From Candidatus Fermentibacterota bacterium (GTDB taxonomy: Bacteria; Fermentibacterota; Fermentibacteria; Fermentibacterales; Fermentibacteraceae), in assembly GCA_012523605.1 (NCBI GenBank), contig JAAYTY010000144.1, positions 1 through 51,620 on the forward strand: a DNA stretch of 51,620 nucleotides, given 5' to 3'. Made by a program: the position numbers and the translations under genes. Every line of letters starts with the position of its first letter. The first letter of the stretch is position 1. Under the pieces are notes generated by a model, which saw only the letters and a program-made list of their open reading frames with translations, had not been told where the DNA came from and ran no database searches. Positions 35,631-51,481 of this stretch are shown piece by piece.

Positions 35631-36977
<1,347 letters not shown>

Positions 36978-36978
36978 G

Positions 36979-38439
36979 ATGGAAGGGACCATCTTCTCGA
37001 AGAGCTGCTGCGGACGCCGGGGAATGGACCTCCCAGCGCCGGAGGTTCCCGTGCTCGATCCCTCCGCGGTCCTGGGTCCCGGCAGGCTCCGTTCCGCGCC
37101 GGTCGGCCTCCCCCAGGTCAGCGAGCCTCAGGCCGTGAGGCACTTCGTCAACCTCGGGGTCAAGAACTACCACGTGGACAAAGGCATCTATCCGCTGGGC
37201 TCTTGCACGATGAAATACAATCCCAAGCTCAACGAGGACCTCGCGAGGCACCCTGCCTTCGCCGGCCTGCACCCGCTTGCTCCGGCCCGGGCCGCCCAGG
37301 GCGCGCTGGAGCTGATGCACGAGCTGGGGACCTACCTGTGCGAGATCACGGGATTCCGCGGAGTGACCCTCCAGCCTGCCGCCGGAGCCCAGGGTGAGTT
37401 CACGGGACTCCTCCTCATCAGGAAGTGGCACGACGCGAGGGGAGATGCCGGAAGGGTCGAGGTGCTGATGCCCGATTCGGCCCACGGCACCAACCCCGCA
37501 TCCAGCACTCTGGCGGGCATGCGGGTGGTCAGCGTGAAATCCGACTCCCGAGGCGAAGTGGATCTCGACGACCTGAAGGCGAAGGCCGGCCCCCTGACCG
37601 CGGCTCTCATGCTGACGAACCCCAACACTCTCGGGATCTTCGAGTCGCGCATCGGAGAGATCACGAGGATCGTCCACGAGGCCGGCGGCCTCTGCTACAT
37701 GGACGGAGCGAACCTCAACGCCCTCCTGGGGATCGCGAGGCCGGGGGACATGGGATTCGACGTCTGCCACGTGAACCTGCACAAGACCTTCTCCACCCCC
37801 CACGGCGGAGGCGGGCCCGGCGCGGGGCCCGTGGCCTGCGCCGAGCCTCTGGCCAGGTTCCTGCCGAATCCGGTCGTCGTGCGCGCCGGGGACGGCTCCT
37901 ATGCGTTCGAGCCCGGCGGGAGGGAGTCCTTCGGAAGGCTGCTGGCCTTCCACGGCAACTTCGGGGTTCTCGTCAGGGCCTGGGCGTACATCCGGACTCT
38001 CGGCGCGGCAGGCCTCCGCGAGACGGCCGAGAACGCGCTGATAAACGCCAACTACCTCAGGGCGCGGCTGAAGGGTGCCTTCGAGCTTCCCTATGACCAC
38101 GGCCCCTGCATGCACGAGTTCGTGCTGTCGGGCGAGGCGCAGGCGAAGAAAGGCGTCAGGACGCTGGACATCGCGAAGAGGCTGCTCGACTACGGTTTCC
38201 ATGCCCCCACCATCTATTTCCCCCTGATCGTTCACGAGGCGATCATGATCGAGCCCACCGAGACCGAGGGTCTCCAGTCCCTCGACGCCTTCGCGGACGC
38301 CATGCTCGCCATCGCGAGGGAGGTCGAGGAGAAGCCGCACCTCGTCACGGACGCACCGGTGAACACGCCGGTCCTTCGGCTCGACGAGGTCCGCGCCGTG
38401 AAGGAGCTGGACATAGCGGAACCGTGGGAGAGAACGTAG
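36979..38439 (+). CDS. gcvPB: Glycine dehydrogenase subunit 2
   Basis: PLGSCTMKYNP, QPAAGAQGE, SAHGTNPAS, PLP-Lys motif NLHKTFSTPHGGGGPG, and IEPTETE. Confidence 0.97.
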   Translation: MEGTIFSKSCCGRRGMDLPAPEVPVLDPSAVLGPGRLRSAPVGLPQVSEPQAVRHFVNLGVKNYHVDKGIYPLGSCTMKYNPKLNEDLARHPAFAGLHPLAPARAAQGALELMHELGTYLCEITGFRGVTLQPAAGAQGEFTGLLLIRKWHDARGDAGRVEVLMPDSAHGTNPASSTLAGMRVVSVKSDSRGEVDLDDLKAKAGPLTAALMLTNPNTLGIFESRIGEITRIVHEAGGLCYMDGANLNALLGIARPGDMGFDVCHVNLHKTFSTPHGGGGPGAGPVACAEPLARFLPNPVVVRAGDGSYAFEPGGRESFGRLLAFHGNFGVLVRAWAYIRTLGAAGLRETAENALINANYLRARLKGAFELPYDHGPCMHEFVLSGEAQAKKGVRTLDIAKRLLDYGFHAPTIYFPLIVHEAIMIEPTETEGLQSLDAFADAMLAIAREVEEKPHLVTDAPVNTPVLRLDEVRAVKELDIAEPWERT

Positions 38440-38867
38440 AAACCGGGGCGCGGTCCGTACTCGAGTGGAGGTCGCACCCTGCAGCCGAGAGGCCGCTGGC
38501 CGCCGCCCTTCTGCTCGTTATAATGCTCGCTGCCACGGGCGGGGCGGTGCTCTGGGGCGGAAGCCCGTGGTGGGGCGTCGTGGGCTTCGCGATGCTCTTC
38601 CTGGGCTTGTGGAGCTTCCTCCTGCCCGCCTGGTACCGGATGGACGGGAAGGGGGTCTCGAAGCGCACCGTCTTCGGCCTGGAGAAGCGCGAGTGGCGGG
38701 AAGTCAGGAGCTTCACGGTGGACAGGTACGGAATGCTCCTCAGTCCGTTTCCCGGACCTGCGAGGCTGGCGAAGTTCCGCGGGCTGTCCGTCCAGTTCTC
38801 GCCCTCCAACAGGGAGGAAGTCGTTGGGTTTGTCGAGGCAAGGACCGTGGGGGACCGTACCCGCTGA
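38424..38867 (+). CDS. Small two-TM membrane protein with a C-terminal soluble (PH/YcxB-like) domain
   Basis: W.SHPA, two hydrophobic helices, then FLLP.WY...R.W..VR..LLSPF..RL..FRG. Overlaps the gcvPB stop. Confidence 0.7.
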   Translation: MGENVETGARSVLEWRSHPAAERPLAAALLLVIMLAATGGAVLWGGSPWWGVVGFAMLFLGLWSFLLPAWYRMDGKGVSKRTVFGLEKREWREVRSFTVDRYGMLLSPFPGPARLAKFRGLSVQFSPSNREEVVGFVEARTVGDRTR

Positions 38868-39273
38868 CGCCGCGGAGGGCGAGTCCTACGACGATCTGAT
38901 AGGGAAGATCGCCCGTGAGATAGTCAGCCGCGAACTCACAGTTCCGGCGATCATGTTCCTCGAGTCGGTTAAGCCCCTGTCGTTCCTCGGGAACCAGCTT
39001 CTCGTGTTCCTGGATCCGGTGGTCTCCCTCGTGGTGACCTCGGGGGAATACCGGCGCTTCGTCAGGATGCTCGAGGACAGGGAGAACCTCGAAAGGCTGA
39101 TATCCGTGATAGAGGAGGAAAACGCCCTCGAAGAGGCCCGCAGGAGGGAGGAGAGGAGCAGGCGCCCCCGGCGCGGGCTTCGCGCCTTCTTCGGGCGCCG
39201 TGGAGGGCCCGCAGGGGAGCAGAAGGGAGACGGCATTGGCCGGCAAGGAGATCACCAGGATACTGGCAACTGA
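38824..39273 (+). CDS. Conserved-looking hypothetical protein
   Basis: KIA..IV.R.L.VPAIMFLES.KPL.FLGNQ...F..P core and a charged tail. GGAGG ribosome-binding site before TTG 38824. Confidence 0.7.
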   Translation: MGLSRQGPWGTVPADAAEGESYDDLIGKIAREIVSRELTVPAIMFLESVKPLSFLGNQLLVFLDPVVSLVVTSGEYRRFVRMLEDRENLERLISVIEEENALEEARRREERSRRPRRGLRAFFGRRGGPAGEQKGDGIGRQGDHQDTGN

Positions 39274-41101
39274 CTGCGGCAGCACGACGACCAAGGCCAT
39301 TCTCATCGAGAAGCGGGCCGGCGAGTACAGGCTGATCCGCCGGGGCGAGGCGCCGACGACGGTGGAGGCGCCCGCCGAGGACGTGACCAAGGGGGTGCTC
39401 AACGCCGTAGGCGAGATAGAGGACCTCGAGGGCAGGGAGTTCCTCGACGCCTCCCGCGAAGGGATAGCCGTGGGTGACGATCTCTCCAGGGGCGTGGACA
39501 TCTTCGTCTCTACCTCCTCCGCCGGGGGAGGGCTCCAGATGACCGTCGCCGGAGTGGTCAAGTCCATGACCGGCGAGAGCGCCCAGCGCGCCGCCCTCGG
39601 CGCCGGCGCGATCGTCATGGACGTCGTCGCCTCGAACGACGGCCGGCTGTTCCACGAGAAGGTCGCCGACATCAGGCGCCTCCGGCCGGACATGATCCTG
39701 CTCTCCGGCGGCATAGACGGAGGGACCATAGACCATGTCGTGGAACTGGCCGAGGTCATAAGGGCCGCCGACCCCAAGCCCAGGTTCGGGGTGGGCTACA
39801 AGCTGCCCGTCATCTACGCAGGGAACAGGGACGCCACAGGAGAGGTGGAGCACGAGCTCGGCGGGATGTCCGCCCTCAAGGTGGTCCCCAACATCCGGCC
39901 CGTCCTCGAGAGGGAGAACCTGGGCCCGGCGCGCGACACGATACACGAACTCTTCATGGAGCATGTCATGGCCCAGGCTCCGGGCTACGGCAAGCTGATG
40001 CAGTGGGCTGGCCACTGGGTTGACGGCAGGTGGGAGAACGTTCCGATCATGCCCACTCCAGGGGCCGTCGGAAAGCTGATCGAGATGGTCGCCAGGGCCG
40101 AGGGCATCCATGTCATGGGCGTGGATATCGGCGGCGCCACGACCGACGTGTTCAGCGTCTTCGACAGCCAGGGCCAGCCCGTCTTCAACCGCACCGTATC
40201 GGCCAACCTGGGGATGAGCTACAGCATTTCGAACGTCCTCGCCAGCGCAGGCATGGAGAACGTGATGCGCTGGGTTCCCTTCAGGATGGACGAGGCCGAC
40301 CTCAGAAACCGCATCCGGAACAAGATGATCAGACCCACGACCATCCCGCAGACCCTCGAGGAGCTGATCGTCGAGCAGGCTATCAGCCGGGAGGCCCTGA
40401 GACTTGCCCTGGTCCAGCACCGGGAGCTGGCCGTGGGCCTCAAGGGGGTGGCGCAGGAGCGGACCATCGGCGACGCCTTCGAGCAGACCCAGACGGGTGC
40501 GACCCTGGTGGACATGATGAAGCTCGACCTGCTGATCGGCTCGGGCGGAGTCCTGTCCCATGCTCCGAGGAGATGCCAGGCGGCGCTGATGATGATCGAC
40601 TCGTTCCTCCCCGAAGGCATCACGATGCTGGCGGTGGACTCGATCTTCATGATGCCCCAGCTCGGCGTTCTCTCGAAAGAGCTCCCGGAAGCGGCCGCCG
40701 AGGTCTTCGACAAGGACTGCCTCATCCGGCTCGGAAGCTGCGTCGCTCCTTCCGGCCAGTCGAAGGACGGCCAGACCACCGCGACCATGCAGATGGAGGC
40801 CCCCGACGGCCGGACGCGCGAGTTCAGGATCGTCTACGGCAGAATGGAGGTGATCCCCCTGGGCGTCGGCGAGAAGGCAAGGGTAACGATACGCCCGGCG
40901 AAGGGGATAGATGTCGGAGCCGGTCCCGGAAGGCAGCTCGAATCGGTGGTCGAGGGCGGAGTCGTTGGAGTCGTGCTCGACGGCAGGGGCAGGCAGCCGT
41001 TCGGCCTTCCGGCGGGAGACGCCGAGAGGATCCGCAAGCTGCAGGAGTGGGCCATGGCCATGACGGCCTACCCCGAGAAGTTCCTTTCCCTGGGGAGGTA
41101 G
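39236..41101 (+). CDS. GlmL/MutL (glutamate mutase L)-family ASKHA-fold ATPase with C-terminal extension
   Basis: Phosphate-1 motif ATDCGSTTTKA, SSAGGGL, LLSGGIDGG, MPTP.AV, phosphate-2 motif VDIGGATTDVFS, RTV..NLGM and IGSGGVLSH. TTG start at 39236 after AAGGGAG. Confidence 0.85.
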   Translation: MAGKEITRILATDCGSTTTKAILIEKRAGEYRLIRRGEAPTTVEAPAEDVTKGVLNAVGEIEDLEGREFLDASREGIAVGDDLSRGVDIFVSTSSAGGGLQMTVAGVVKSMTGESAQRAALGAGAIVMDVVASNDGRLFHEKVADIRRLRPDMILLSGGIDGGTIDHVVELAEVIRAADPKPRFGVGYKLPVIYAGNRDATGEVEHELGGMSALKVVPNIRPVLERENLGPARDTIHELFMEHVMAQAPGYGKLMQWAGHWVDGRWENVPIMPTPGAVGKLIEMVARAEGIHVMGVDIGGATTDVFSVFDSQGQPVFNRTVSANLGMSYSISNVLASAGMENVMRWVPFRMDEADLRNRIRNKMIRPTTIPQTLEELIVEQAISREALRLALVQHRELAVGLKGVAQERTIGDAFEQTQTGATLVDMMKLDLLIGSGGVLSHAPRRCQAALMMIDSFLPEGITMLAVDSIFMMPQLGVLSKELPEAAAEVFDKDCLIRLGSCVAPSGQSKDGQTTATMQMEAPDGRTREFRIVYGRMEVIPLGVGEKARVTIRPAKGIDVGAGPGRQLESVVEGGVVGVVLDGRGRQPFGLPAGDAERIRKLQEWAMAMTAYPEKFLSLGR

Positions 41102-41105
41102 GAGG

Positions 41106-42227
41106 ATGGCATTCGCTTACACACCGGGTCTCAGGGTCGCCGACGTGACGACCGTCCGCAAGGAACGCCGCCTCCCGCTCAAGGGCAGAGTCCTGGTCCG
41201 TGAGGGCGCCGACGTGGACGCCGAGACGGTGGTCGCCAGGACCGAGCTGCCCGGCAACGTGAAGATGCTCAACATAGCCAACATTCTCGGCGTGCCGCCC
41301 GACGACATCCCGGAGCTCCTCTTGAAGAAGGAGGGCGACCCGCTGTCGGAGAACGAGACGATAGCCCAGTCCAGGGGGCTGTTCGGGCTGTTCCGGAACA
41401 CCGTGAGATCACCCATCGAGGGATCCTTCGAGAGCTTCAACAAGGTCACGGGACAGGCGGTTCTCAGGGAGCCGCCGATTCCGGTGACCATCGACGCATA
41501 CGTGAAGGGGCGCGTGGTGGAAGTGATCCCCGACGAGGGCGTCGTGGTGGAGACGAGGGCCACCTTCGTACAGGGCATCTTCGGCATCGGAGGAGAGGTC
41601 AGAGGGTTCCTGAAGACGGTCGTCAAGAGCCCCGACCAGGAGCTGACATCCGATCTGATAGACGCCTCCTGCTCGGGGAGGATCCTGGTGGGAGGCTCGT
41701 TCGTTACCGTGGCCACGCTCCGGAAGGCCGTGTCGGCCGGTGTGAAGGGGATGGTCGTCGGCGGCTTCGACGACAGGGATCTGAAGGATTTCCTCGGCTA
41801 CGATCTCGGCGTCGCCATCACAGGCCACGAGAACAAGGGCATAACCCTCGTCCTGACGGAGGGGTTCGGCCGCATGAACATGGCCCGGGCCACTTTCGAC
41901 CTCCTGAGGAGCCGCGAGGGAATGCTCGCGAGCATAAACGGCGCGACACAGATCAGGGCGGGGGTGATCCGCCCGGAGGTGGTCATCCCGGTCGGCGACG
42001 AGGTACAGGGCAAACCGCCTTCGAGGGAGCAGGGGGCTCTCGTCACCGGATCGCCCGTCAGGGTCATCAGGGCGCCGTATTTCGGCAGGCTGGGCAGAGT
42101 GTCGGCGCTGCCGCCGGAGCTGCAGCAGCTCGAGACCGAGGCTCACGTGAGGGTGCTCGAAGTGGAGTTCGGGGACGGCTCCAGGGCGGTGGTGCCCAGG
42201 GCAAACGTCGAGCTCATAGAGGAATAG
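41106..42227 (+). CDS. Hypothetical soluble protein with barrel-sandwich-hybrid-like repeats and a C-terminal KOW/SH3-like motif
   Basis: G.VLV.EG..V....VVAR and KKEGD......IA...SPI.G half-motifs, VQGIFGIGGE, LTEGFG, G.TQIRAGV.RPE and G..VRVIR.PYFG..G.V. AGGAGG ribosome-binding site. Confidence 0.8.
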   Translation: MAFAYTPGLRVADVTTVRKERRLPLKGRVLVREGADVDAETVVARTELPGNVKMLNIANILGVPPDDIPELLLKKEGDPLSENETIAQSRGLFGLFRNTVRSPIEGSFESFNKVTGQAVLREPPIPVTIDAYVKGRVVEVIPDEGVVVETRATFVQGIFGIGGEVRGFLKTVVKSPDQELTSDLIDASCSGRILVGGSFVTVATLRKAVSAGVKGMVVGGFDDRDLKDFLGYDLGVAITGHENKGITLVLTEGFGRMNMARATFDLLRSREGMLASINGATQIRAGVIRPEVVIPVGDEVQGKPPSREQGALVTGSPVRVIRAPYFGRLGRVSALPPELQQLETEAHVRVLEVEFGDGSRAVVPRANVELIEE

Positions 42228-42327: not shown

Positions 42328-43542
42328 ATGAGGTTGTTCGGTCTTCTCGCGCTGGCGCTGGCCGCCGGCCCGGCGGCACAGCCGGCCGGGCCGCCCGGGA
42401 CCGGCCCGGTTGCATACGGGCAGGCCGCGGCCGACTCGATGCCTTCACCGCCCCCTGCGCCTTCGGTGACCGGTCTCGCCGCCCGCGATGTGCGCGACGA
42501 CGCCGGCGGCGCGATCGAGCTCTCGTGGGAGCTGGTTCCAGGCGTGACGGCCGACTCGCTCCTCGTGTCCCGAAGCGCCGACGGCGGGACATGGGAGACG
42601 GTCGCCTTCCTGCCCGGAGCCGAAGTGGTGTTCACGGACGAGGGGCTGGAGGACGGCGTCGAGTACTCCTACACCGTCACCTCCCTCCTGGGCGGTGCGG
42701 CATCCCAGCCGGCGGGGCCGGTTTCTGCGGTCCCCTCGGCGCAGTGGCTTCACTCGAAGCGCACCGGGATGCTCATCATCCTGGTCCTGCTCTCCGGCGT
42801 GATCTTCTGGTTCATCGACCAGGGCAGGAAGGGCCGAAAGCTGTACATACGCGAGATCGCCGGGCTCTCCGCCGTGGACGACGCCGTCGGCAGGGCCACC
42901 GAGATGGGCCGGTCGGTGCTCTACATCCCCGGCATCATGGGCATGGACGACATCCAGACGATAGCCAGCATGATCATCCTGGGGCGCGTGGCCGGCAAGA
43001 CCGCCGAGTACGGCGCCGACCTTCAGGTGCCGGTCTGCAACAGCGTCGTGATGAGCGTGGGACAGGAGATCGTGAAGGAGGCGTATCTCGCTGCCGGAAG
43101 GCCCGACTCCTACCGTCGCGACAATGTCTTCTACCTCACCGACGACCAGTTCGGATACGCGGCGGGCGTGGACGGGATAATGGTCCGCCAGCGGCCCGCA
43201 GCCATATTCATGCTGGGCACCTTCTACGCCGAGAGCCTCATCCTGGCCGAGACCGGCAAGAGCGTGGGCGCGATCCAGATCGCCGGCACGGCCATGCCCA
43301 GCCAGCTTCCGTTCTTCATCGCCGCCTGCGACTACACCCTCATAGGCGAGGAGCTCTTCGCCGCCAGCGCCTACCTTTCCCGCGAGCCCAAGCTCCTCGG
43401 GAGCCTGAAGGGCCAGGATGCAGCCAAGCTGATTATCATGCTGGTGATCGTTGTCGGCGTGCTCGCCGCCTCGATAGGCACATGGTGGGCGCCGGCGGCC
43501 TCCCTGGCGGACTTCCTCCGCCGCATCCTTCACGTCGAGTAG
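42328..43542 (+). CDS. Signal peptide + fibronectin type III domain + TM + DUF6754-like domain
   Basis: FN3 motifs L.A.D...D.GG.I.LSW and F.D.GL.DG..Y.Y.V; a TM helix; IR.IAGL.A.D.AVGRATEMG, IQIAGT...QLPFF and LIGEELFAASAYL; C-terminal TM. The DUF number is from memory. Confidence 0.75.
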   Translation: MRLFGLLALALAAGPAAQPAGPPGTGPVAYGQAAADSMPSPPPAPSVTGLAARDVRDDAGGAIELSWELVPGVTADSLLVSRSADGGTWETVAFLPGAEVVFTDEGLEDGVEYSYTVTSLLGGAASQPAGPVSAVPSAQWLHSKRTGMLIILVLLSGVIFWFIDQGRKGRKLYIREIAGLSAVDDAVGRATEMGRSVLYIPGIMGMDDIQTIASMIILGRVAGKTAEYGADLQVPVCNSVVMSVGQEIVKEAYLAAGRPDSYRRDNVFYLTDDQFGYAAGVDGIMVRQRPAAIFMLGTFYAESLILAETGKSVGAIQIAGTAMPSQLPFFIAACDYTLIGEELFAASAYLSREPKLLGSLKGQDAAKLIIMLVIVVGVLAASIGTWWAPAASLADFLRRILHVE

Positions 43543-43553
43543 GGGGTGGCGGA

Positions 43554-44213
43554 ATGAGGACGATCCTTCCTCTCGCGATTACGTTCGTAACGGGAATGAT
43601 CATGGTACTCAACTTTTTCGTGCCCCACCGCCCCTTCAACTCCATGGGCAACTCGCTGTCCGACTGGTACATGATCGTGGCCTCCGCCGCCATCTTCCTC
43701 GGCGCGATGAACCTCCTCCAGGTCCACTTCGCGAGGATCCGCCACAGAGCCAGGAACTGGCAGTACAGCCCGGTGGCGATAGGCGGGTTCCTCCTCATGC
43801 TGACGGCCGGGCTGGTCACCGGTGTGGAGGAGGGCCGCGCATTCGACTTCATGTTCCAGAACATGGTGGTCCCGATGGGAGCGACGATGTTCAGCCTCCT
43901 CGCCTTCTTCGTCGCGTCAGCCGCCTTCAGGGCGTTCAGATCGTCCAACTGGAGGGCCACCCTCCTCCTGGTCTCGGCGTTCGTCGTCATGCTGGGCAGG
44001 GTTCCGATCGGCGACCTCCTGTGGAGGCTCGTGCCCGGAGCGGCTTCGGGTGCGCATCCGAGCCTGGTGACGGAGATCGCCGAGTGGATAATGCAGGTCC
44101 CCAACATGGCCGGACAGCGAGCTGTGATGATAGGTGCCGCGCTGGGCGTCGTCGCCACCTCGCTCCGCATGATCTTCGGCGTCGAGCGCAGCTACCTCGG
44201 AGGTGCGGACTGA
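43554..44213 (+). CDS. Polytopic membrane protein (~6 TM), unknown function
   Basis: Almost entirely hydrophobic, with TMFSLLAFFVASAAFRAFR, MLGRVPIG, W.M.VPN.AG.R and G.ERSYLG. Confidence 0.85.
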   Translation: MRTILPLAITFVTGMIMVLNFFVPHRPFNSMGNSLSDWYMIVASAAIFLGAMNLLQVHFARIRHRARNWQYSPVAIGGFLLMLTAGLVTGVEEGRAFDFMFQNMVVPMGATMFSLLAFFVASAAFRAFRSSNWRATLLLVSAFVVMLGRVPIGDLLWRLVPGAASGAHPSLVTEIAEWIMQVPNMAGQRAVMIGAALGVVATSLRMIFGVERSYLGGAD

Positions 44214-45073
44214 TGGGTGGCCTCCTCGAAAAGCTCGACAGGATAGACAGGCGGTTCATCTATCTCCTCATGGCTCTGTCGGTCCTCGTTCCGCTCGCAT
44301 TCAGGCTCGAGATGCCGATCCCGGTCAGCCCCGGCCCCAGCATGGACCTCTACGAAGCGGTCGACGCGCTTCCGCCGGGCTCGGTCGTGATAGTGAGCTA
44401 CGACTACGATCCCTCCACGATGCCAGAACTCCAGCCCATGGCCGTGGCGCTGACCCGGCACCTCATGTCGAGAGGCGTGAAGATCATCGCCACGGCTCTC
44501 TGGCCGCAGGGCGCGAGCCTCGCGCAGAACGCGCTCACGCAGATCTCCGACAGCCTCGGGCTCTCGGAGTACGAGGACTGGGTGAACCTGGGCTACACCG
44601 TGGGAGGGGCCGTTTCGGTCGTCAGGATGGGCAGCTCGATAAGCGCCGTCTTTCCCAGGGACAGGGTCGGGGTGCCCTACGACTCGATCCCTGTGCTCGA
44701 AGGCGTCGGCAGGCTGGCCGACATCTCGATGGTCATCGCGCTGTCCGCCGGCGATCCCGGCATCCACGCCTGGGTGATGGTGGCCCAGGGCAGGTTCGGC
44801 ATCCCCGTAGGAGGGGGCTGTACCGCCGTCAGCGCGCCGGAGTTCTACACCTATCTCGGCTCGGGCCAGCTGGTCGGCCTGCTCGGCGGGCTGAAGGGGG
44901 CCGCCGACTACGAGACCCTTCTCAAAAGGGACAATCCGGGAGCCCCCGGCGGCACCGCGACCCCCGGAATGGCCGCGCAGTCCATCTCGCATCTCGTCAT
45001 CATGGGATTCATAGTGATAGGCAACATCGCCTTCATCGCTGGCAGGAAGAGGAAGAGGGGGGGTGCGAAGTGA
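44213..45073 (+). CDS. Membrane-anchored protein (TM - alpha/beta domain - TM), unknown function
   Basis: DRRFIYL plus TM, DYDP....EL.PM, WVNLGY, GG.TAVSAP, SGQL.GLLGG.KGAA.YE, and a C-terminal TM with an RKRKR tail. TGATG coupling to the upstream gene. Confidence 0.85.
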   Translation: MGGLLEKLDRIDRRFIYLLMALSVLVPLAFRLEMPIPVSPGPSMDLYEAVDALPPGSVVIVSYDYDPSTMPELQPMAVALTRHLMSRGVKIIATALWPQGASLAQNALTQISDSLGLSEYEDWVNLGYTVGGAVSVVRMGSSISAVFPRDRVGVPYDSIPVLEGVGRLADISMVIALSAGDPGIHAWVMVAQGRFGIPVGGGCTAVSAPEFYTYLGSGQLVGLLGGLKGAADYETLLKRDNPGAPGGTATPGMAAQSISHLVIMGFIVIGNIAFIAGRKRKRGGAK

Positions 45074-45726
45074 ACTGGGAGATCCTCGGCATCTGGCTGG
45101 GGGCCCTGCTGACCCTGAGCCTCTATAGTTTTCTTTACAGGGACAACCCCTTCTACAAGTTCACCGAGCATCTCTTCGTGGGGATGAGCGCGGGATACTG
45201 GGTCATCTACAACATCTTCAACGTACTGAGGCCGAACCTCTGGGACAGGCTGACCGGCGCCGGGGAGGCCGGTCCCGACCTCTGGATGATCATCCCCGCC
45301 GTGTTCGGCGTGTTCATGATCCTCCGCCTGGTGCCGAAGGTCGCCAGCCTGTCGCGGTTCGCCCTCGCGATGATAGTCGGCACGGGCGCGGGACTGAGCC
45401 TCGTCACGACGCTCCAGACGAACGCCCTCGCCCAGGTGGAGGGGACCATACTGTCGGTGACCGGCGGCGGGCTGTCGGAGTTCCTCGACAGCTTCCTCCT
45501 GGTCGCGGGGGTGGTCTGCGGGCTGGTGTACTTCTTCTTCTCGAAAGCCCACAGGGGGGTGATCGGAGGCGCCGCCGGCATCGGAATCACGATCCTCATG
45601 ATCGCCTTCGGCGCCAGCTTCGGCTACACCGTGATGGCGCGAATCAGCCTGCTGATCGGTCAGGCGCAGTTCCTGCTGTTCAGATGGCTGCCCACGATAC
45701 CCCTCTTCAGGGGCCTTGCCGGATAG
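45070..45726 (+). CDS. Polytopic membrane protein (~6 TM), unknown function
   Basis: LTL.LYSFLY.DNP.YK..EH..VG..AGY, L.YFFFS and M.AFGA.FGYTVM.RISLL.G. GTGA overlap with the upstream gene. Confidence 0.85.
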   Translation: MNWEILGIWLGALLTLSLYSFLYRDNPFYKFTEHLFVGMSAGYWVIYNIFNVLRPNLWDRLTGAGEAGPDLWMIIPAVFGVFMILRLVPKVASLSRFALAMIVGTGAGLSLVTTLQTNALAQVEGTILSVTGGGLSEFLDSFLLVAGVVCGLVYFFFSKAHRGVIGGAAGIGITILMIAFGASFGYTVMARISLLIGQAQFLLFRWLPTIPLFRGLAG

Positions 45727-45778: not shown

Positions 45779-45961
45779 CACTTCGGGCAGTGTGCCCGTG
45801 ATGCGGCGTTCCGCCCCGTTGGGGCGGCTTTGTATGGGTTTGCTCGGCAGTGTTCGCTTCTTGATAGAGGTTGCGCCCCCCGGGAAAGGGAGGTGGACCA
45901 GCTCCGGAGGGCGGAGGCTTTCGACTGAGGTCCCCGATTCTTGGGAAAGGAGAAAAAGACC

Positions 45962-48661
45962 GTGCTGAGTAGGGCTACAGTGCTCTCTCTCGCCCTGGTC
46001 CTGCTGGTCGCGTTCGGCGCGATGGCCGGCACCACGGGCAAGATCGCAGGTCGGGTCACCGACCGGAACGGTCAGCCCCTGGTCGGCGCCGCGGTGCTCA
46101 TAGTGGGCACCCCCTACGGCGCCATGACCGACGCCAACGGCGAGTACTTCATCATCAACCTCGAGCCCGGCGAGTACACGCTGAGGGCGCAGATGGTGGG
46201 AATGTCCATGAAGGAGGCTCAGGGCGTGGAGGTCCTCGTGGACATGACCACGCGCATGGACTTCACACTCGACCCCGAGGCCGTGGGCAACACGGTTTTC
46301 GTGGTCACGGGCGACAGGGCGATGATCCTCCGCGACCTCACGCAGTCCGTCCACGTCGTCAGCCGTGACGAGATCAAGACCATGCCGGTGGCCGGCATCC
46401 AGGACGTCGTCAACCGCCAGGCCGGCTCCGTGGACCGCGGCGGGCTCCACATGCGCGGCGGCAGAACCGGCGAGGTGGTCTATCTCGTCGACGGCGTCGC
46501 CCAGGTGGATCCAACCAGCAACGTGTTCAACAGCGACATCCCCATGTCCGCGGTGGCCGAGACGTCGGTCATCTCCGGCGGCTTCGGCGCGGAGTACGGC
46601 AACGCCCAGTCCGGAGTCGTGAACATCGTCACCCGCGAGGGCGGAAACGAGTACACCGGCTCCGCAGAGTTCAGTGGAAACGACTGGCAGGCCCTGGGTC
46701 TGGCCGACGGCTGGACATTCGTCACCGACTGGGACGACGCCGGCCCGTTCTCCGAGGCCAGGCTCAACGGCGAGGCCTCCATCGGCGGCCCCGAGCCCCT
46801 CACGAGCTTCCTTCTGCCCGCCATCGGCATCGACATCCCCGGCGACATGCGCCTCTTCGCCTCCGGCGAATGGCTCGAGACCGGCGGCGGCGAGGATGGG
46901 CGCTACGAGTATCAGTTCAACAACTGGCGCACCCAGTGGAGCACCAACGTCAAGCTGACCTACCGCCCCAACAACAGGACGAAGATCAACCTCACCTCCT
47001 ACATCCTCGACAGGGTGGCGGGCTTCGGCATCTGGGAGTACTACCGCTGCGAGGAGCCGTACGTAGATCCGGCGACCGGCGACACCATGCCCGGCACCGA
47101 CGTCCGCTACATCCTCCCCACGAGGTTCTGGCTCAACACCAGCAACGGCATCGGCCTCACCCAGACCCTCAGCGACGCGACCTTCATGGAGTTCAAGGTC
47201 AACCAGTACATGGCCCGCTTCCGCTACAAGATCCGCGACCCGGAAGGCGGCTGGCTGGGCGAGGACTGGGACGAGGACGACTGGCTGGCATACCAGCCCT
47301 CCCGCGTGAACGACGAGGAGGGATATCCGCGCTCCGGCGCCAGCCGCTACGCCTGGAACGACACCCGCAGCACCATCTCCACGGCGAGGATAGACGTCAC
47401 GAGCCAGATCTCGCAGGAGCACCAGCTCAAGGCCGGCGTCGAGGGCCAGTACTACGACGTGTTCGACTACAGCGTGGACACCGCCTCCGGAGGCAACATC
47501 TACCTCAACAGGTATCACGCCTTCCCGAACAGCGGCTCCGCGTACATCCAGGACAAGATGGAGTACAGGGGCATGATCGTGAACGCGGGTCTCAGGTTCG
47601 ACTACTTCGACGCCAACTTCGACAACTACCCGGCCGATCCGTCGAACCCGGTGACCCCGGGCACGACGCCCGACGACCCCGACCACATAGTCAACCCGAT
47701 CTCCGTTCCGATCAAGTACCACCTCAGCCCGCGCGTGGGCTTCTCCCACCCCATCACCGAGCGTGACGTCCTCCACTTCACCTACGGCCACTACTTCCAG
47801 ATGCCGATGTTCGACAGGCTCTACTACGGATCTTCGTACGACCTGTCCGGCGCCTTCCCGCTGATCGGCAACGTGGACCTCGAGCCCGAGGAGACCATCT
47901 CCTACGAGGTGGGAGTGAAGCACCAGTTCGACGACGTGACCCTCATGGACGTGACGGGCTTCTACAAGGACATCACGGGCCTGATCGACACCGAGCGCAA
48001 CTTCTATTCGGCCGTTGACTTCTACGATCACTACATCAACGGCGACTACGGCAGCGTGCGCGGCGCCGAGCTCTCGATCATGAGGCGCCAGAGCGGCTTC
48101 TGGTCGTTCAGCGGCAACTACAGCTACCAGGTCGCCAAGGGCAAGTCGTCGGGCGCCACCCAGAACTACAGCTACCTATGGTCAGGCTGGGTCATCCCGA
48201 AGCGCGAGTCCTACCTCGACTGGGATCAGAGGCACACCGCCAACGTGAATGTGGACTTCCGCATTCCCAGGGGCGAGGGTCCGAGGCTCGGCGCATTCCC
48301 GATCCTCGAGGGCTTCGGCGTTTCCACCCAGTGGAGCTGGGGCTCGGGCTTCCCGTACACGCAGGACAACCAGGGTACCGCCTCCCCCGAGATCAACGGA
48401 AGGCGCATGCCCTGGACTATGAATACGGACATGAAGATCAACCGCACGATATGGGCGGGCCCGCTGACCTTCGACGTGTACTGCTGGATCATGAACGTCT
48501 TCAACCGGCAGAACATCAGCAGCATCGCCGATATCGCCTGGTATGACGCCGATCAGGACGGCGACGGCGAGCCCGACCACGATCCCGAGGGCTCGACCCA
48601 CAATCCGTACGTGTATTCGCGTCCGCGCATGATCCGCTTCGGCATGAGCGTGGAGTGGTAG
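45962..48661 (+). CDS. TonB-dependent receptor with N-terminal carboxypeptidase-regulatory-like domain
   Basis: Signal peptide; GKIAGRVTD..G.PL.GA.V; plug motifs H.RGGR..E..Y.VDG and SGGF.AEYGNA.SGVVN; SPR.GFS.P; L.PE.T.SYE.G; C-terminal RFGMSVEW. AAGGAG ribosome-binding site before GTG. Confidence 0.93.
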   Translation: MLSRATVLSLALVLLVAFGAMAGTTGKIAGRVTDRNGQPLVGAAVLIVGTPYGAMTDANGEYFIINLEPGEYTLRAQMVGMSMKEAQGVEVLVDMTTRMDFTLDPEAVGNTVFVVTGDRAMILRDLTQSVHVVSRDEIKTMPVAGIQDVVNRQAGSVDRGGLHMRGGRTGEVVYLVDGVAQVDPTSNVFNSDIPMSAVAETSVISGGFGAEYGNAQSGVVNIVTREGGNEYTGSAEFSGNDWQALGLADGWTFVTDWDDAGPFSEARLNGEASIGGPEPLTSFLLPAIGIDIPGDMRLFASGEWLETGGGEDGRYEYQFNNWRTQWSTNVKLTYRPNNRTKINLTSYILDRVAGFGIWEYYRCEEPYVDPATGDTMPGTDVRYILPTRFWLNTSNGIGLTQTLSDATFMEFKVNQYMARFRYKIRDPEGGWLGEDWDEDDWLAYQPSRVNDEEGYPRSGASRYAWNDTRSTISTARIDVTSQISQEHQLKAGVEGQYYDVFDYSVDTASGGNIYLNRYHAFPNSGSAYIQDKMEYRGMIVNAGLRFDYFDANFDNYPADPSNPVTPGTTPDDPDHIVNPISVPIKYHLSPRVGFSHPITERDVLHFTYGHYFQMPMFDRLYYGSSYDLSGAFPLIGNVDLEPEETISYEVGVKHQFDDVTLMDVTGFYKDITGLIDTERNFYSAVDFYDHYINGDYGSVRGAELSIMRRQSGFWSFSGNYSYQVAKGKSSGATQNYSYLWSGWVIPKRESYLDWDQRHTANVNVDFRIPRGEGPRLGAFPILEGFGVSTQWSWGSGFPYTQDNQGTASPEINGRRMPWTMNTDMKINRTIWAGPLTFDVYCWIMNVFNRQNISSIADIAWYDADQDGDGEPDHDPEGSTHNPYVYSRPRMIRFGMSVEW

Positions 48662-48688
48662 AAGGCGCAGGCTGAACAAACGAAGGCG

Positions 48689-48715
48689 GGCGGTTCCCCT
48701 TCCGGGGGGACCGCC
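48689..48715 (+). terminator. Intercistronic stem-loop between TBDR and exbB
   Basis: GGCGGTTCCCC-TTCCG-GGGGGACCGCC: an 11-bp stem with one G-U pair and no U-tract. Confidence 0.55.
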
Positions 48716-48748
48716 TCCCGACAGCGACCGACAAGGAGAAGTCCTTAG

Positions 48749-49582
48749 ATGCGTAACATCCTGATTGCAGTCCTGTTCATGGCTGCGCTCTCCTGGGGGC
48801 AGGCCGGCGGGACACCAGCGGCCGCGACGCCTGACTCGACTGCCGTACAGCCCGAAGACACCACCGCACAGGTGACCGAACCCGTCGCTCCTCCGGTGGA
48901 AGACGCCGCCACCCCTCCCGAAGGTCAGGACATCGAGCGCCCGCAGAGCGCCCGCATGGATATCAAGGACCTGTTCATAGCGGGCGGGATCTTCATGTGG
49001 CCGCTGCTCCTCTCCGCGATCCTCGGCGTGGCCTTCTCGGTGGAGCGCTTCATCACCCTCGGGAAGTGCAAGATCAACCAGGGTCTCTTCCTCGAACAGC
49101 TCGGGGGCTACATCCGCAAGGGCGACGCCCGCGGAGCCGAGGACCTCTGCGACCGCACGCGCGGCCCGGTGGCCTCCATCATGCGCGCCGGCCTCCTGCG
49201 CCGTGACAAGGGCCTCGACGCCGTCGAGAAGGGCATAGAGACCGCGGCCAGCGTCGAGGTGAACTTCCTCGAGCGGGGCCTCATCGTGCTCGCCTCGGTA
49301 GTCGTCATCGCCCCCATGCTGGGCTTCCTCGGAACGGTTTCGGGCATGATCAACGCCTTCGGCGCGATAGCCGCCGCAAAGAACGTCGAGGCCAGCCTTG
49401 TCGCGAGCGGCATACAGGAGGCGCTGATCACCACGGCCACCGGCCTGATGATCGCCATCCCGATCCAGATGTGCTACAACTGGTTCCTAGCTCAGATCGG
49501 CCGTTACGTGGTCGAGATGGAGGAAGCCAGCGGCTTCCTGGTGGACACCCTGACCGACATGGAGCAGCTCAAGAAGCTGTAA
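48749..49582 (+). CDS. exbB: MotA/TolQ/ExbB proton channel with a signal-like sequence and Pro/Thr-rich N-terminal extension
   Basis: GG..MWPLL, ER, LERGL..L, APMLGFLGTV.GMI.AF and GI.EAL.TTA.GL.IAIP. Confidence 0.93.
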   Translation: MRNILIAVLFMAALSWGQAGGTPAAATPDSTAVQPEDTTAQVTEPVAPPVEDAATPPEGQDIERPQSARMDIKDLFIAGGIFMWPLLLSAILGVAFSVERFITLGKCKINQGLFLEQLGGYIRKGDARGAEDLCDRTRGPVASIMRAGLLRRDKGLDAVEKGIETAASVEVNFLERGLIVLASVVVIAPMLGFLGTVSGMINAFGAIAAAKNVEASLVASGIQEALITTATGLMIAIPIQMCYNWFLAQIGRYVVEMEEASGFLVDTLTDMEQLKKL

Positions 49583-49591
49583 GGAGTTCGC

Positions 49592-50341
49592 ATGCGGCTG
49601 ATAAAGAAATCTAGCCCGAACGCGGATATTCCTGAGGCTTCAATGGCCGACATCGGGTTCCTCCTGATGATCTTCTTCCTCGTCACGACCACGTTCGAGG
49701 TCCAGAAGGGCATCTCCTACAGGCTTCCCAAGAAGCCCGACGAGCAGACGCAGGAGGTGGTCGTCGACGAGACCAACCGTCTCATGATGACCATCAAGCA
49801 GTGGGGGATGAACGAATACGTGGCCCTGATCGACCAGGCTCCTCCAGGAGGGCCCCTGCAGAGGGCCCGCGCGGGCGAGGACGTCAGCCTGGAGGACTCG
49901 GCCCTGGTGTCGGGCATCCGCGCGCTCGCATCCGAGCGCGCCGAAACGCTCGCGGCGGCGCGCAGCAGGCTGCTCACGAACCTGCTGATCGCGAAGGACC
50001 TCTCGGCCGGTTCCTACACCAGCCTCGAAGTGGCCATTCAGGGAGAGAACCTTGTTCCGCAGGTGCGCCCGGGGATCATGAGGTCGCACCTCGGATCGAG
50101 CATCGTCGTCGACGACGACCCCTTGTTCGGGCAGGTCGCCTTCGGCGACACTCTCGTGCTCTCCGACGCCGTGCAGGGCGAGATAGCGAGCGTGGTGAGG
50201 GAGAGCGAACTGGTCGTGATCCTGAAGTTCTTCCCCGACTGCGATTACGACGGCATGGTGCAGGCCCTGGACATGCTGCGCCGGAACGGCGTCAGCCGCA
50301 CGGGCATCACGATCCAGGAGAGGACGGGTGGCACGGTATGA
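49592..50341 (+). CDS. exbD: ExbD/TolR-family protein with a large internal insertion
   Basis: IP.ASMADI.FLL.IFFLVTTTF TM motif and C-terminal VILK...Y..MV..LD.L...GV. At 249 aa it is much longer than a typical ExbD. Confidence 0.82.
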   Translation: MRLIKKSSPNADIPEASMADIGFLLMIFFLVTTTFEVQKGISYRLPKKPDEQTQEVVVDETNRLMMTIKQWGMNEYVALIDQAPPGGPLQRARAGEDVSLEDSALVSGIRALASERAETLAAARSRLLTNLLIAKDLSAGSYTSLEVAIQGENLVPQVRPGIMRSHLGSSIVVDDDPLFGQVAFGDTLVLSDAVQGEIASVVRESELVVILKFFPDCDYDGMVQALDMLRRNGVSRTGITIQERTGGTV

Positions 50342-50796
50342 GGATAAAGCGCGCATCGAGGTCACCCGCCAAGATCCCCACCGCCTCCACGGCGGATCTG
50401 GTGTTCATCCTGCTGACGTTCTTCATGAGCACCACCCTGTTCCGCGAGGAGGGGGGGCTGAGCATCCGGTTCCCGCAGGCGCATCCCGAAGTCATGACCG
50501 AACTCGGGAGGCAGGCGCTGTCCATCAACGTGTGGGTGAAGCAGCTCGAGCCGGGCAACGACCAGAGCGACATCGTGGCGCGCATCGGCGACTTCGACAT
50601 GCCCGTCCGTGACGTCCCGGTTCAGCTCAGGGCCCTTAGCGAGCGCCTGTGGACGGAGCAGAACAAGAGCGTTGACGTGATCATCTTCAACATAGACCAG
50701 CGCGTCCCGATGCGGGCGATGGTCGAACTGTTCAACTCCCTCCGGTACGAGGAGCTGTACAGCGTCATGTTCAACGCCGAGGAAGTCCCATACTAG
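50338..50796 (+). CDS. exbD: Second ExbD/TolR-family protein
   Basis: IPTASTADLVFILLTFFMSTT.F and D..VP.....L...LR. ATGA overlap with the first exbD. Confidence 0.85.
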   Translation: MRIKRASRSPAKIPTASTADLVFILLTFFMSTTLFREEGGLSIRFPQAHPEVMTELGRQALSINVWVKQLEPGNDQSDIVARIGDFDMPVRDVPVQLRALSERLWTEQNKSVDVIIFNIDQRVPMRAMVELFNSLRYEELYSVMFNAEEVPY

Positions 50797-50806
50797 GGAG
50801 GACGCT

Positions 50807-51481
50807 GTGAGCACGCGTGCGAACGCATACAGCGAGTTCAAGGAGAAGGCCTCCCTGATGTACGACTGGGGGACGGTCATGGCGCTCGCAGCCGCCATCC
50901 TGATCTTCGAACTGGTCCCCCCCACGGAGATGGGAAGCATATCCACTCGCACCACCGACTCCGAGATGGAGGCCGTGGAGGCCGACCTCGCCTTCGACGA
51001 CACGGTCCAGGAGCAGGAGGAGGAGGTCCAGCAGGAGCAGGAGGAGATGCAGCAGGCCGCCGAGGAGCTGATCGAGCAGCTCCAGACGGACGTGACCCTG
51101 TCGCTGGGCGACTCGACGGGTCTCGCGACCGTCACGACCGTCCAGCAGACTGCCGAGAACGTCGGCGATGGCGGCGAGGAGATGGGCCCCCCCAGGTTCA
51201 TGCCCGTGGAGGTCTTCCCCAACTGCACGTTCCGTCCCCAGCCTGCCTACCCGGAGATGGCGCGGATGGCGGGCGTGGAGGGAACCGTCACGCTGTGGGT
51301 GTTCGTGAAGACCGACGGCACGGTGGGGGATGTTCAGCTCTACAACTCGAGCGGAGCGAGCGCCCTGGACGAAGCGGCCCTCGAGGCCGCCTGGCGCACG
51401 AGATGGACCCCCGCCCAGAACAGCGGGATTCCCGTCGGAGTGTGGACGACCGTGCAGTACGTCTTCACGCTGAACAACTAG
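50807..51481 (+). CDS. tonB: Energy transducer TonB
   Basis: N-terminal TM, acidic linker, and a C-domain P.YPE.AR.AG.EG.V...V...G.V....SSG...LD.AA..A.....PA...G.PV....F.L. Confidence 0.92.
   Translation: MSTRANAYSEFKEKASLMYDWGTVMALAAAILIFELVPPTEMGSISTRTTDSEMEAVEADLAFDDTVQEQEEEVQQEQEEMQQAAEELIEQLQTDVTLSLGDSTGLATVTTVQQTAENVGDGGEEMGPPRFMPVEVFPNCTFRPQPAYPEMARMAGVEGTVTLWVFVKTDGTVGDVQLYNSSGASALDEAALEAAWRTRWTPAQNSGIPVGVWTTVQYVFTLNN
51005..51055 (+). repeat. Short imperfect in-frame tandem repeat (GTCCAG[CAG]GAGCAGGAGGAG) encoding the Glu/Gln linker of TonB
   Basis: Translates as VQEQEEE VQQEQEE MQQ. Confidence 0.5.

Follow-up and report, generated by a model that had tools for sequence, protein, structure and literature searches.

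A conserved four-gene membrane cassette beside a GlmL-like ATPase, with A and A' predicted to face opposite sides of the membrane and no sequence-detectable kinship between them

Results

A four-gene cassette that recurs across phyla

The window analysed here is a 51,620-nucleotide (nt) stretch of DNA from Candidatus Fermentibacterota bacterium (contig JAAYTY010000144.1, assembly GCA_012523605.1). It contains four successive genes for membrane proteins, referred to below as A, B, A' and B'. Open reading frame (ORF) calls and translations placed all four genes where an initial annotation of the window had put them, and confirmed that both A and A' are followed by a polytopic protein of about 219 amino acids (aa).

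42328..43542, + strand: gene A, 404 aa (ORF and translation; PF20539 match; AlphaFold2 (AF2) model)
43554..44213, + strand: gene B, 219 aa (ORF and translation; six transmembrane (TM) helices)
44213..45073, + strand: gene A', 286 aa (ORF and translation; AF2 model)
45070..45726, + strand: gene B', 218 aa (ORF and translation; six or seven hydrophobic segments)

An 11-nt gap containing a G-rich stretch lies between A and B. The stop codon of B overlaps the start codon of A' (TGATG), and the stop codon of A' overlaps the start codon of B' (GTGA). The source names of the closest homologues of the cassette proteins point to Fermentibacteria.

The A-B-A'-B' layout, which had been described from the window, was found to recur among 158 fetched loci of several phyla. 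A genome scan provided 80 of these loci, kept from 565 confirmed matches and originating from Fermentibacteria, Stahlbacteria, WOR-3, Latescibacteria, Zixibacteria and Coatesbacteria, while a metagenome scan seeded with 8 distant A' sequences provided 78, kept from 559. When the 80 genome loci were searched with phmmer, A was detected in 80, B in 78, A' in 76 and B' in 73. The full order was present in 36 of the 78 metagenome loci, and most of the others contain truncated versions of it. A was located upstream of A' in all 117 cases with room for it. Applying a strict spacing rule, B was recovered in 92 of 117 cases and B' in 113 of 135; the misses are nearly all due to over-long ORF calls, with a match to B missing from a single locus (L001) and a match to B' from two (L078 and L082). 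Two metagenome loci list other orders, B'-A' and A-B-B'-A'. More than one cassette was found in 8 of the 78 metagenome loci as well as in locus L057, the repeating unit being the four-gene cassette in every case, as illustrated by the tandem arrangement B'-A-B-A'-B'-A-B-A'-B'. Beyond these loci, DUF6754 (the Pfam domain of A, see below) was found at E ≤ 0.001 in all 8,000 candidates scored, and the A' family comprises 5,090 clusters at 50% identity (E ≤ 0.001).

Domain structure of A and A'

The A protein consists of a signal-peptide-like N-terminus, an FN3 domain, a TM helix, the DUF6754 domain, a second TM helix and a short amphipathic tail. A' starts with a basic N-terminal tail, followed by a TM helix, a Rossmann-like domain, a second TM helix and a basic C-terminal tail (GRKRKR).

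42454..42744, + strand: FN3 domain of A, predicted to be exported (residues 43-139)
42754..42828, + strand: TM helix 1 of A, followed by the basic patch GRKGRK (residues 143-167; model helix, family hydropathy, lysine plus arginine (K+R) counts)
42736..43482, + strand: DUF6754 region of A (Pfam match, residues 137-385; predicted cytoplasmic domain approximately 168-358)
43402..43476, + strand: TM helix 2 of A (residues 359-383; model, hydropathy, K+R counts)
44336..44932, + strand: Rossmann-like (β-α)6 domain of A' (residues 42-240; AF2 model)

Comparison of A with PF20539 (DUF6754) gave a score of 405.1 bits against a cut-off of 27 (E 1.2e-121, model positions 2-250 of 257). A is a full member of the DUF6754 family, and a genome-wide search gave the same outcome. 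The family is well conserved, with 52-68% identity across phyla. In the AF2 model, the FN3 domain forms a seven-strand β sandwich that is matched by solved FN3 domains. The matches listed by fold searches with the A model all concerned the FN3 domain, and a PDB sequence search with the A profile likewise gave only FN3 matches. The mean predicted local distance difference test score (pLDDT) of the model is 70.0, and within the DUF6754 domain only residues 181-270 exceed a pLDDT of 60. This confident half folds as α0-β1-α1-β2-α2-β3-α3-β4, corresponding to four β-α units. Residues 275-287 and 297-360 fall below a pLDDT of 50, and this stretch holds the motif that the initial annotation had compared with A'. 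Residues 271-360 are nearly invariant (conservation 0.87-1.00 per 10-residue block); the lowest-confidence stretch of the model is thus the most conserved part of the DUF6754 family. A membrane-embedded location of residues 291-345 was considered and dropped, given a family hydropathy of 0.3-0.9 compared with 2.3-2.5 in the true helices.

The AF2 model of A' has a pLDDT of 91.7 and a predicted TM-score (pTM) of 0.87. It reveals a TM helix (residues 13-29), a helix α0, six β-α units and a second TM helix (residues 249-283), the soluble domain being built from a parallel sheet with alternating helices that is matched by solved Rossmann-type chains. The corresponding Foldseek matches are weak and generic, with TM-scores of 0.16-0.33. 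Neither A' nor B' belongs to a Pfam or NCBIfam family, with A' lacking any Pfam match at E ≤ 0.1. A PDB sequence search with the A' profile gave no match better than E 0.5, and a protein-atlas search returned only unnamed clusters of its own kind and no usable named cluster. The TM-α/β-TM layout that had been ascribed to both A and A' is therefore clear for A', where the model is confident; in A both TM helices are borne out, with the α/β fold confident in its first half only.

The invariant residues of A' are located just past the strands of the Rossmann-like domain: Y65, P71 and E72 follow β1, W97 and G100 follow β2, S178-G183 follow β4 and G202-P209 follow β5. Outside the domain, D12-R13-R14 are invariant in the short, predicted cytoplasmic N-terminal tail (within residues 1-29, window 44213-44299), as are the polar residues H260 and N271 within the second TM helix (residues 249-283, window 44957-45061). 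Among 150 representatives, the 29 with more than 310 aa or fewer than 255 aa were inspected as length variants. At least 12 of these carry an insertion near positions 102-124 and 8 near position 240. Large recognisable domains are inserted near position 115 in two homologues, P0275 (CARDB) and P0321 (HEAT repeats). A further homologue, P0251 (630 aa), resembles a tandem double A' domain.

Predicted orientation of A and A'

Membrane orientations were read from family-wide K+R counts according to the positive-inside rule, from gene fusions and from insertions. For A, the K+R count is 6.7 in the flanks of the DUF6754 domain, compared with 2.8 before TM1 and 1.4 after TM2. Together with the signal-peptide-like N-terminus and the FN3 domain, this points to FN3 outside and DUF6754 in the cytoplasm. 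The A' tails are both basic (3.8 K+R in the N-terminal tail and 3.8 in the C-terminal tail), while the flanks of its domain contain 3.4 K+R against 5.9 aspartate plus glutamate residues. This suggests a Rossmann-like domain in the periplasm, with both basic tails inside.

Two fusion proteins bear on this assignment. P0174 (628 aa) has an exported lipoprotein-type leader, a helix-less A'-type domain, FN3, a TM helix and DUF6754, an arrangement that places the A' domain on the FN3 side, with a single membrane helix between it and DUF6754. In P0391 (598 aa), A' is fused to B' and one extra hydrophobic helix joins the parts; such a helix would be anticipated if the C-terminus of A' were on one side of the membrane and the N-terminus of B' on the other. 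K+R counts, the signal peptide and FN3 domain, the P0174 fusion and the insertions are hence all consistent with the domains of A and A' facing opposite sides, as the initial annotation had proposed.

The polytopic proteins B and B'

In the B family, loops 58-72 and 125-134 are rich in K+R (4.2 and 3.3), whereas loops 24-37 and 92-103 are poor (0.7 and 0.6). With six helices, this implies an N-in topology, and B reads as having both its N- and C-terminus inside. For B', the odd loops have K+R counts of 1.9, 1.9 and 1.1 and the even loops 1.2 and 1.1, with sums of approximately 4.9 and 2.3, respectively; the B' N-terminus is probably outside. An opposite K+R bias of the partners is thus seen for B and B' as well as for A and A'.

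Long homologues of B are frequent carriers of loop insertions. Of 60 such proteins (P0394-P0453), 53 have an insertion of 146-417 aa in the TM3-TM4 loop, and 28 of the long homologues also have one in the TM5-TM6 loop. Both loops are predicted to be outside, and the insertions agree with the orientation assigned to B. A CBM_4_9 carbohydrate-binding domain makes up one of the B-loop inserts, and WD40-type families are listed in the source table for the long homologue P0395.

The B protein itself has only a sub-threshold Pfam match, to DUF7549. Pfam scans of the B and B' alignments gave scattered single matches, with DUF7549 below cut-off in 2 of 39 B sequences and no match common to both proteins. 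NCBIfam holds no family for any of the four membrane proteins. Complex prediction for B + B', using a 39-row alignment for each, gave scores of 0.20 and 0.22 relative to a mark of 0.32, which argues neither for nor against binding.

Sequence comparisons of A with A' and of B with B'

At the sequence level, neither A and A' nor B and B' could be shown to be related. BLASTP of A against A' yielded E 0.24 for a 21-residue piece of membrane helix, and B against B' yielded E 1.7. When profiles were compared using hhalign, the A/A' probability was 5.5% with sets of 51 and 41 sequences, 5.0% with the sets from the 80 genome loci, 7.0% with 122 diverse A' representatives (effective number of sequences (Neff) 4.6) and 3.3% with sets of 134-158 sequences from the 158 loci. 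It fell to 0.3% when only the soluble domains were used. For B/B' the probability was 0.2-0.3%, the same level as that of the control cross-pairs A/B, A'/B', A/B' and B/A' (0.1-1.5%). Comparing the halves of B and B' crosswise and internally gave 0.1-3.8%, with internal repeats at 2.9-3.8%. None of 41 diverse A' members matched PF20539 at E ≤ 1.

Every A/A' match found by hhalign aligns TM1 and GRKGRK of A (residues 147-171) with TM2 and GRKRKR of A' (residues 260-284). TM5 of B' is an almost equally good match for these two helices, with hhalign scores of 22.5 and 17.6 compared with 26.1. The proposal that A and A' are distant paralogues hence finds no support in profile comparison, which had itself been suggested as the check for both pairs and which leaves B/B' at control level. 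The same applies to the idea of an ancient duplicated two-gene unit, as the natural repeats are those of the whole four-gene cassette.

The initial annotation had also pointed to a loosely similar C-terminal pattern in A and A'. In an ungapped profile comparison of 25 columns, the register of this motif ranks 355 of 32,231 diagonals (z 2.5, top 1.1%). Adding the second motif piece, with a 2-residue gap chosen post hoc, raises it to rank 9 of 28,417, as one would anticipate for a pattern picked out by eye. At the sequence level the resemblance does not go beyond chance, and hhalign selects this register neither locally nor globally. For B and B', the hydropathy profiles correlate at zero shift with r 0.48 (reversed controls 0.18, 0.22 and -0.03), and their first three peaks coincide (14/13, 46/40 and 79/79). 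The correlation is not significant, since shifted and reversed controls reach 0.50-0.55.

Genes surrounding the cassette

The cassette forms a module with four genes located upstream.

38424..39273, + strand: two small genes, s1 and s2, 147 and 149 aa (ORFs; 5' of the ATPase in many loci)
39200..41101, + strand: GlmL/MutL-like ASKHA ATPase (PF13941, E 8.3e-122; same module as A-B-A'-B')
41106..42227, + strand: 373-aa partner protein of the ATPase, Par (ORF; between the ATPase and A in compared loci)

The order s1-s2-GlmL-Par-A-B-A'-B' recurs in both the genome and the metagenome locus sets, and the ATPase, partner and small genes adjoin the cassette in many loci. The ATPase belongs to PF13941, and scored 221.6 bits against the GlmL equivalog model NF040745, below the cut-off of 475. 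The partner protein has no Pfam or NCBIfam family above cut-off.

Directly 5' of the module, two ORFs at 35631-38439 encode proteins that, on reading the translations, we take to be GcvPA and GcvPB, the subunits of the glycine cleavage P-protein. This putative gcvPA/gcvPB pair keeps its position in at least 22 of the 80 genome loci. On the 3' side of the cassette (window 45941-51481) lie genes for a TonB-dependent receptor, an ExbB-type protein, two ExbD-type proteins and a TonB-like protein. At least 39 of the 80 genome loci, mostly from Fermentibacteria, have a TonB-dependent receptor gene after the cassette; among the top categories listed, this applies to only 1 of the 78 metagenome loci, which represent other lineages.

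The genome of the window has a second A-B-A'-B' cassette, split over the contig ends C172:6635-7591 (+ strand) and C38:19720-22317 (- strand; loci L160 and L159, respectively). Its A' is lengthened by approximately 50 residues that lie between family positions 113 and 119. In the fetched flanks of this cassette, neither a GlmL-like ATPase gene nor one for its partner was found.

Discussion

We favour, with a probability of roughly 0.6, the view that a single conserved inner-membrane complex is built from A, B, A' and B', each of them a different subunit. In such a complex, A would place FN3 outside and the highly conserved DUF6754 inside, within easy reach of the cytoplasmic GlmL-like ATPase and its partner. 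A' would keep its short basic tails inside and its Rossmann-like domain in the periplasm, beside the FN3 of A. B, with its N-terminus inside, and B', with its N-terminus outside, would make up the polytopic membrane body. We infer mutual binding among the four proteins, with A as the subunit through which the ATPase acts; our guess is that ATP turnover inside is coupled to substrate movement or processing at the periplasmic face. For the layout that A and A' have in common, the best reading is that of two independent solutions, or of a kinship too old to be visible, and a duplication is not demonstrable.

Several points weigh against a complex of four different subunits, or against parts of it. 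The charge bias is weaker in B' than in B, and the assigned orientations derive from the positive-inside rule and one example each of the P0174 and P0391 fusions. The alignments are shallow (Neff 2.5-4.6), so that an ancient duplication could escape hhalign, and the inverted repeats of known transporters are often invisible at the sequence level. Furthermore, the order of elements in the confident half of the A model is the same as in A', which makes a shared Rossmann-like fold possible. Such a fold is too common to be proof of kinship by itself.

On the proposal of the initial annotation, an ancient duplication gave rise to A-B and A'-B' as two halves that are set in opposite orientations and form the pseudo-symmetric core of an alternating-access transporter. 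The period-two layout and matching sizes (B 219 aa, B' 218 aa) would suit a duplication, as would the opposite orientations predicted for A versus A' and B versus B', the coincidence of the first three B/B' hydropathy peaks, the common secondary-structure order of A' and the modelled half of A, and a motif register within the top 1.1% of diagonals. However, there is no sequence signal at any level (A/A' 3.3-7.0%, B/B' 0.2-0.3%, controls 0.1-1.5%), and half-against-half comparison of B and B' reaches only 0.1-3.8%. Both families evolve slowly, A retaining 52-68% identity across phyla, so that kinship ought to have left some trace. In addition, the loops after TM4 differ in length between B and B', the repeats found in nature are four-gene cassettes, and the inverted repeats of known carriers are not known to take the form of soluble domains on opposite faces. 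We put the chance of a true duplication of A-B and A'-B' at about one in eight. A more far-reaching version would have the two gene pairs encode structural repeats, invisible in sequence, that are kept as separate genes in opposite orientations and constitute a new class of ATP-coupled carrier derived from an inverted gene pair. B and B' would then provide a membrane core with a pseudo-two-fold axis in the membrane plane, and each face would bear a Rossmann-like 'lid', the cytoplasmic one (DUF6754) being worked by the actin-fold ATPase. We regard this version as quite improbable.

A different possibility, unlikely but deserving some weight, is that the cassette encodes an envelope enzyme or assembly machine and no carrier, with a catalytic or ligand-binding A' domain and an ATPase that regulates or energises it across the membrane. 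The invariant residues of A' cluster past the strands, where Rossmann-type proteins bind ligands, and the CBM_4_9 domain in a B loop and CARDB in A' are carbohydrate-binding or adhesion-type inserts in parts predicted to be outside; the FN3 domain of A fits the same picture. Against this, Pfam, NCBIfam and PDB sequences offer no enzyme-family match, and no cofactor motif was identified. It is very unlikely that A' instead represents an A protein devoid of DUF6754 in which a Rossmann-like domain has replaced FN3, TM2 and the tail of A' being equivalent to TM1 and the basic patch of A. While the sole hhalign match in every run does pair A 147-171 with A' 260-284, and P0174 does carry an A' domain ahead of the FN3 of A, that match has a probability of no more than 3.3-7.0%, both helices align with TM5 of B' at scores not far below it (22.5 and 17.6 versus 26.1), and an out-to-in helix with basic residues behind it is nothing specific.

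What is gained for the four-subunit complex is a testable map of sides: FN3 of A out and DUF6754 in, the Rossmann-like domain of A' out, B with its N-terminus in and B' with its N-terminus out. Sequence data cannot carry the idea of an inverted duplication. Should that idea be right, the cassette would stand out as a rare inverted-repeat membrane core whose parts have remained on separate genes; should it not be, the complex would nevertheless seem to be a machine, so far undescribed, that connects an actin-fold ATPase with the periplasm. In either case the complex is widespread, and none of its subunits has a studied relative. The literature searched held no mention of DUF6754, of PF20539 or of GlmL together with ASKHA.

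Comparison with known systems

Small membrane proteins encoded in pairs are known from the SMR family (EbrAB) and from CrcB/Fluc. Like B and B', these partners derive from neighbouring genes, are similar in size and show an opposite K+R bias, which for B and B' is a prediction. The SMR and CrcB/Fluc partners have clear sequence homology to each other, in contrast to B/B' and A/A', where no homology is detectable. Each polytopic partner of the present cassette is, moreover, accompanied by a bitopic subunit with a large soluble domain, unlike the SMR and Fluc pairs.

The A' domain shares a Rossmann-like three-layer α/β arrangement with MT0777 (PDB code 1kjn), TrkA/KTN domains and short-chain dehydrogenases, at 5-15% identity. 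It differs from these proteins in being predicted to be periplasmic and clamped by two membrane helices, and no nucleotide-binding motif was identified in it. The upstream ATPase has PF13941 in common with GlmL/MutL, the accessory protein of glutamate mutase, while not reaching the NF040745 cut-off. Unlike GlmL/MutL, its neighbours are membrane proteins, and there is no mutase among the ORFs listed from 36000 to the end of the window.

A further likeness is to PilM-PilN of type IV pili, in which the N-terminal tail of PilN docks on PilM. In both systems an actin-fold cytoplasmic protein is found beside a bitopic protein that has a short conserved N-terminal peptide, D12-R13-R14 in A', predicted to be cytoplasmic. 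By analogy, the N-terminal tail of A' could dock onto the actin-fold ATPase as the PilN tail does on PilM.

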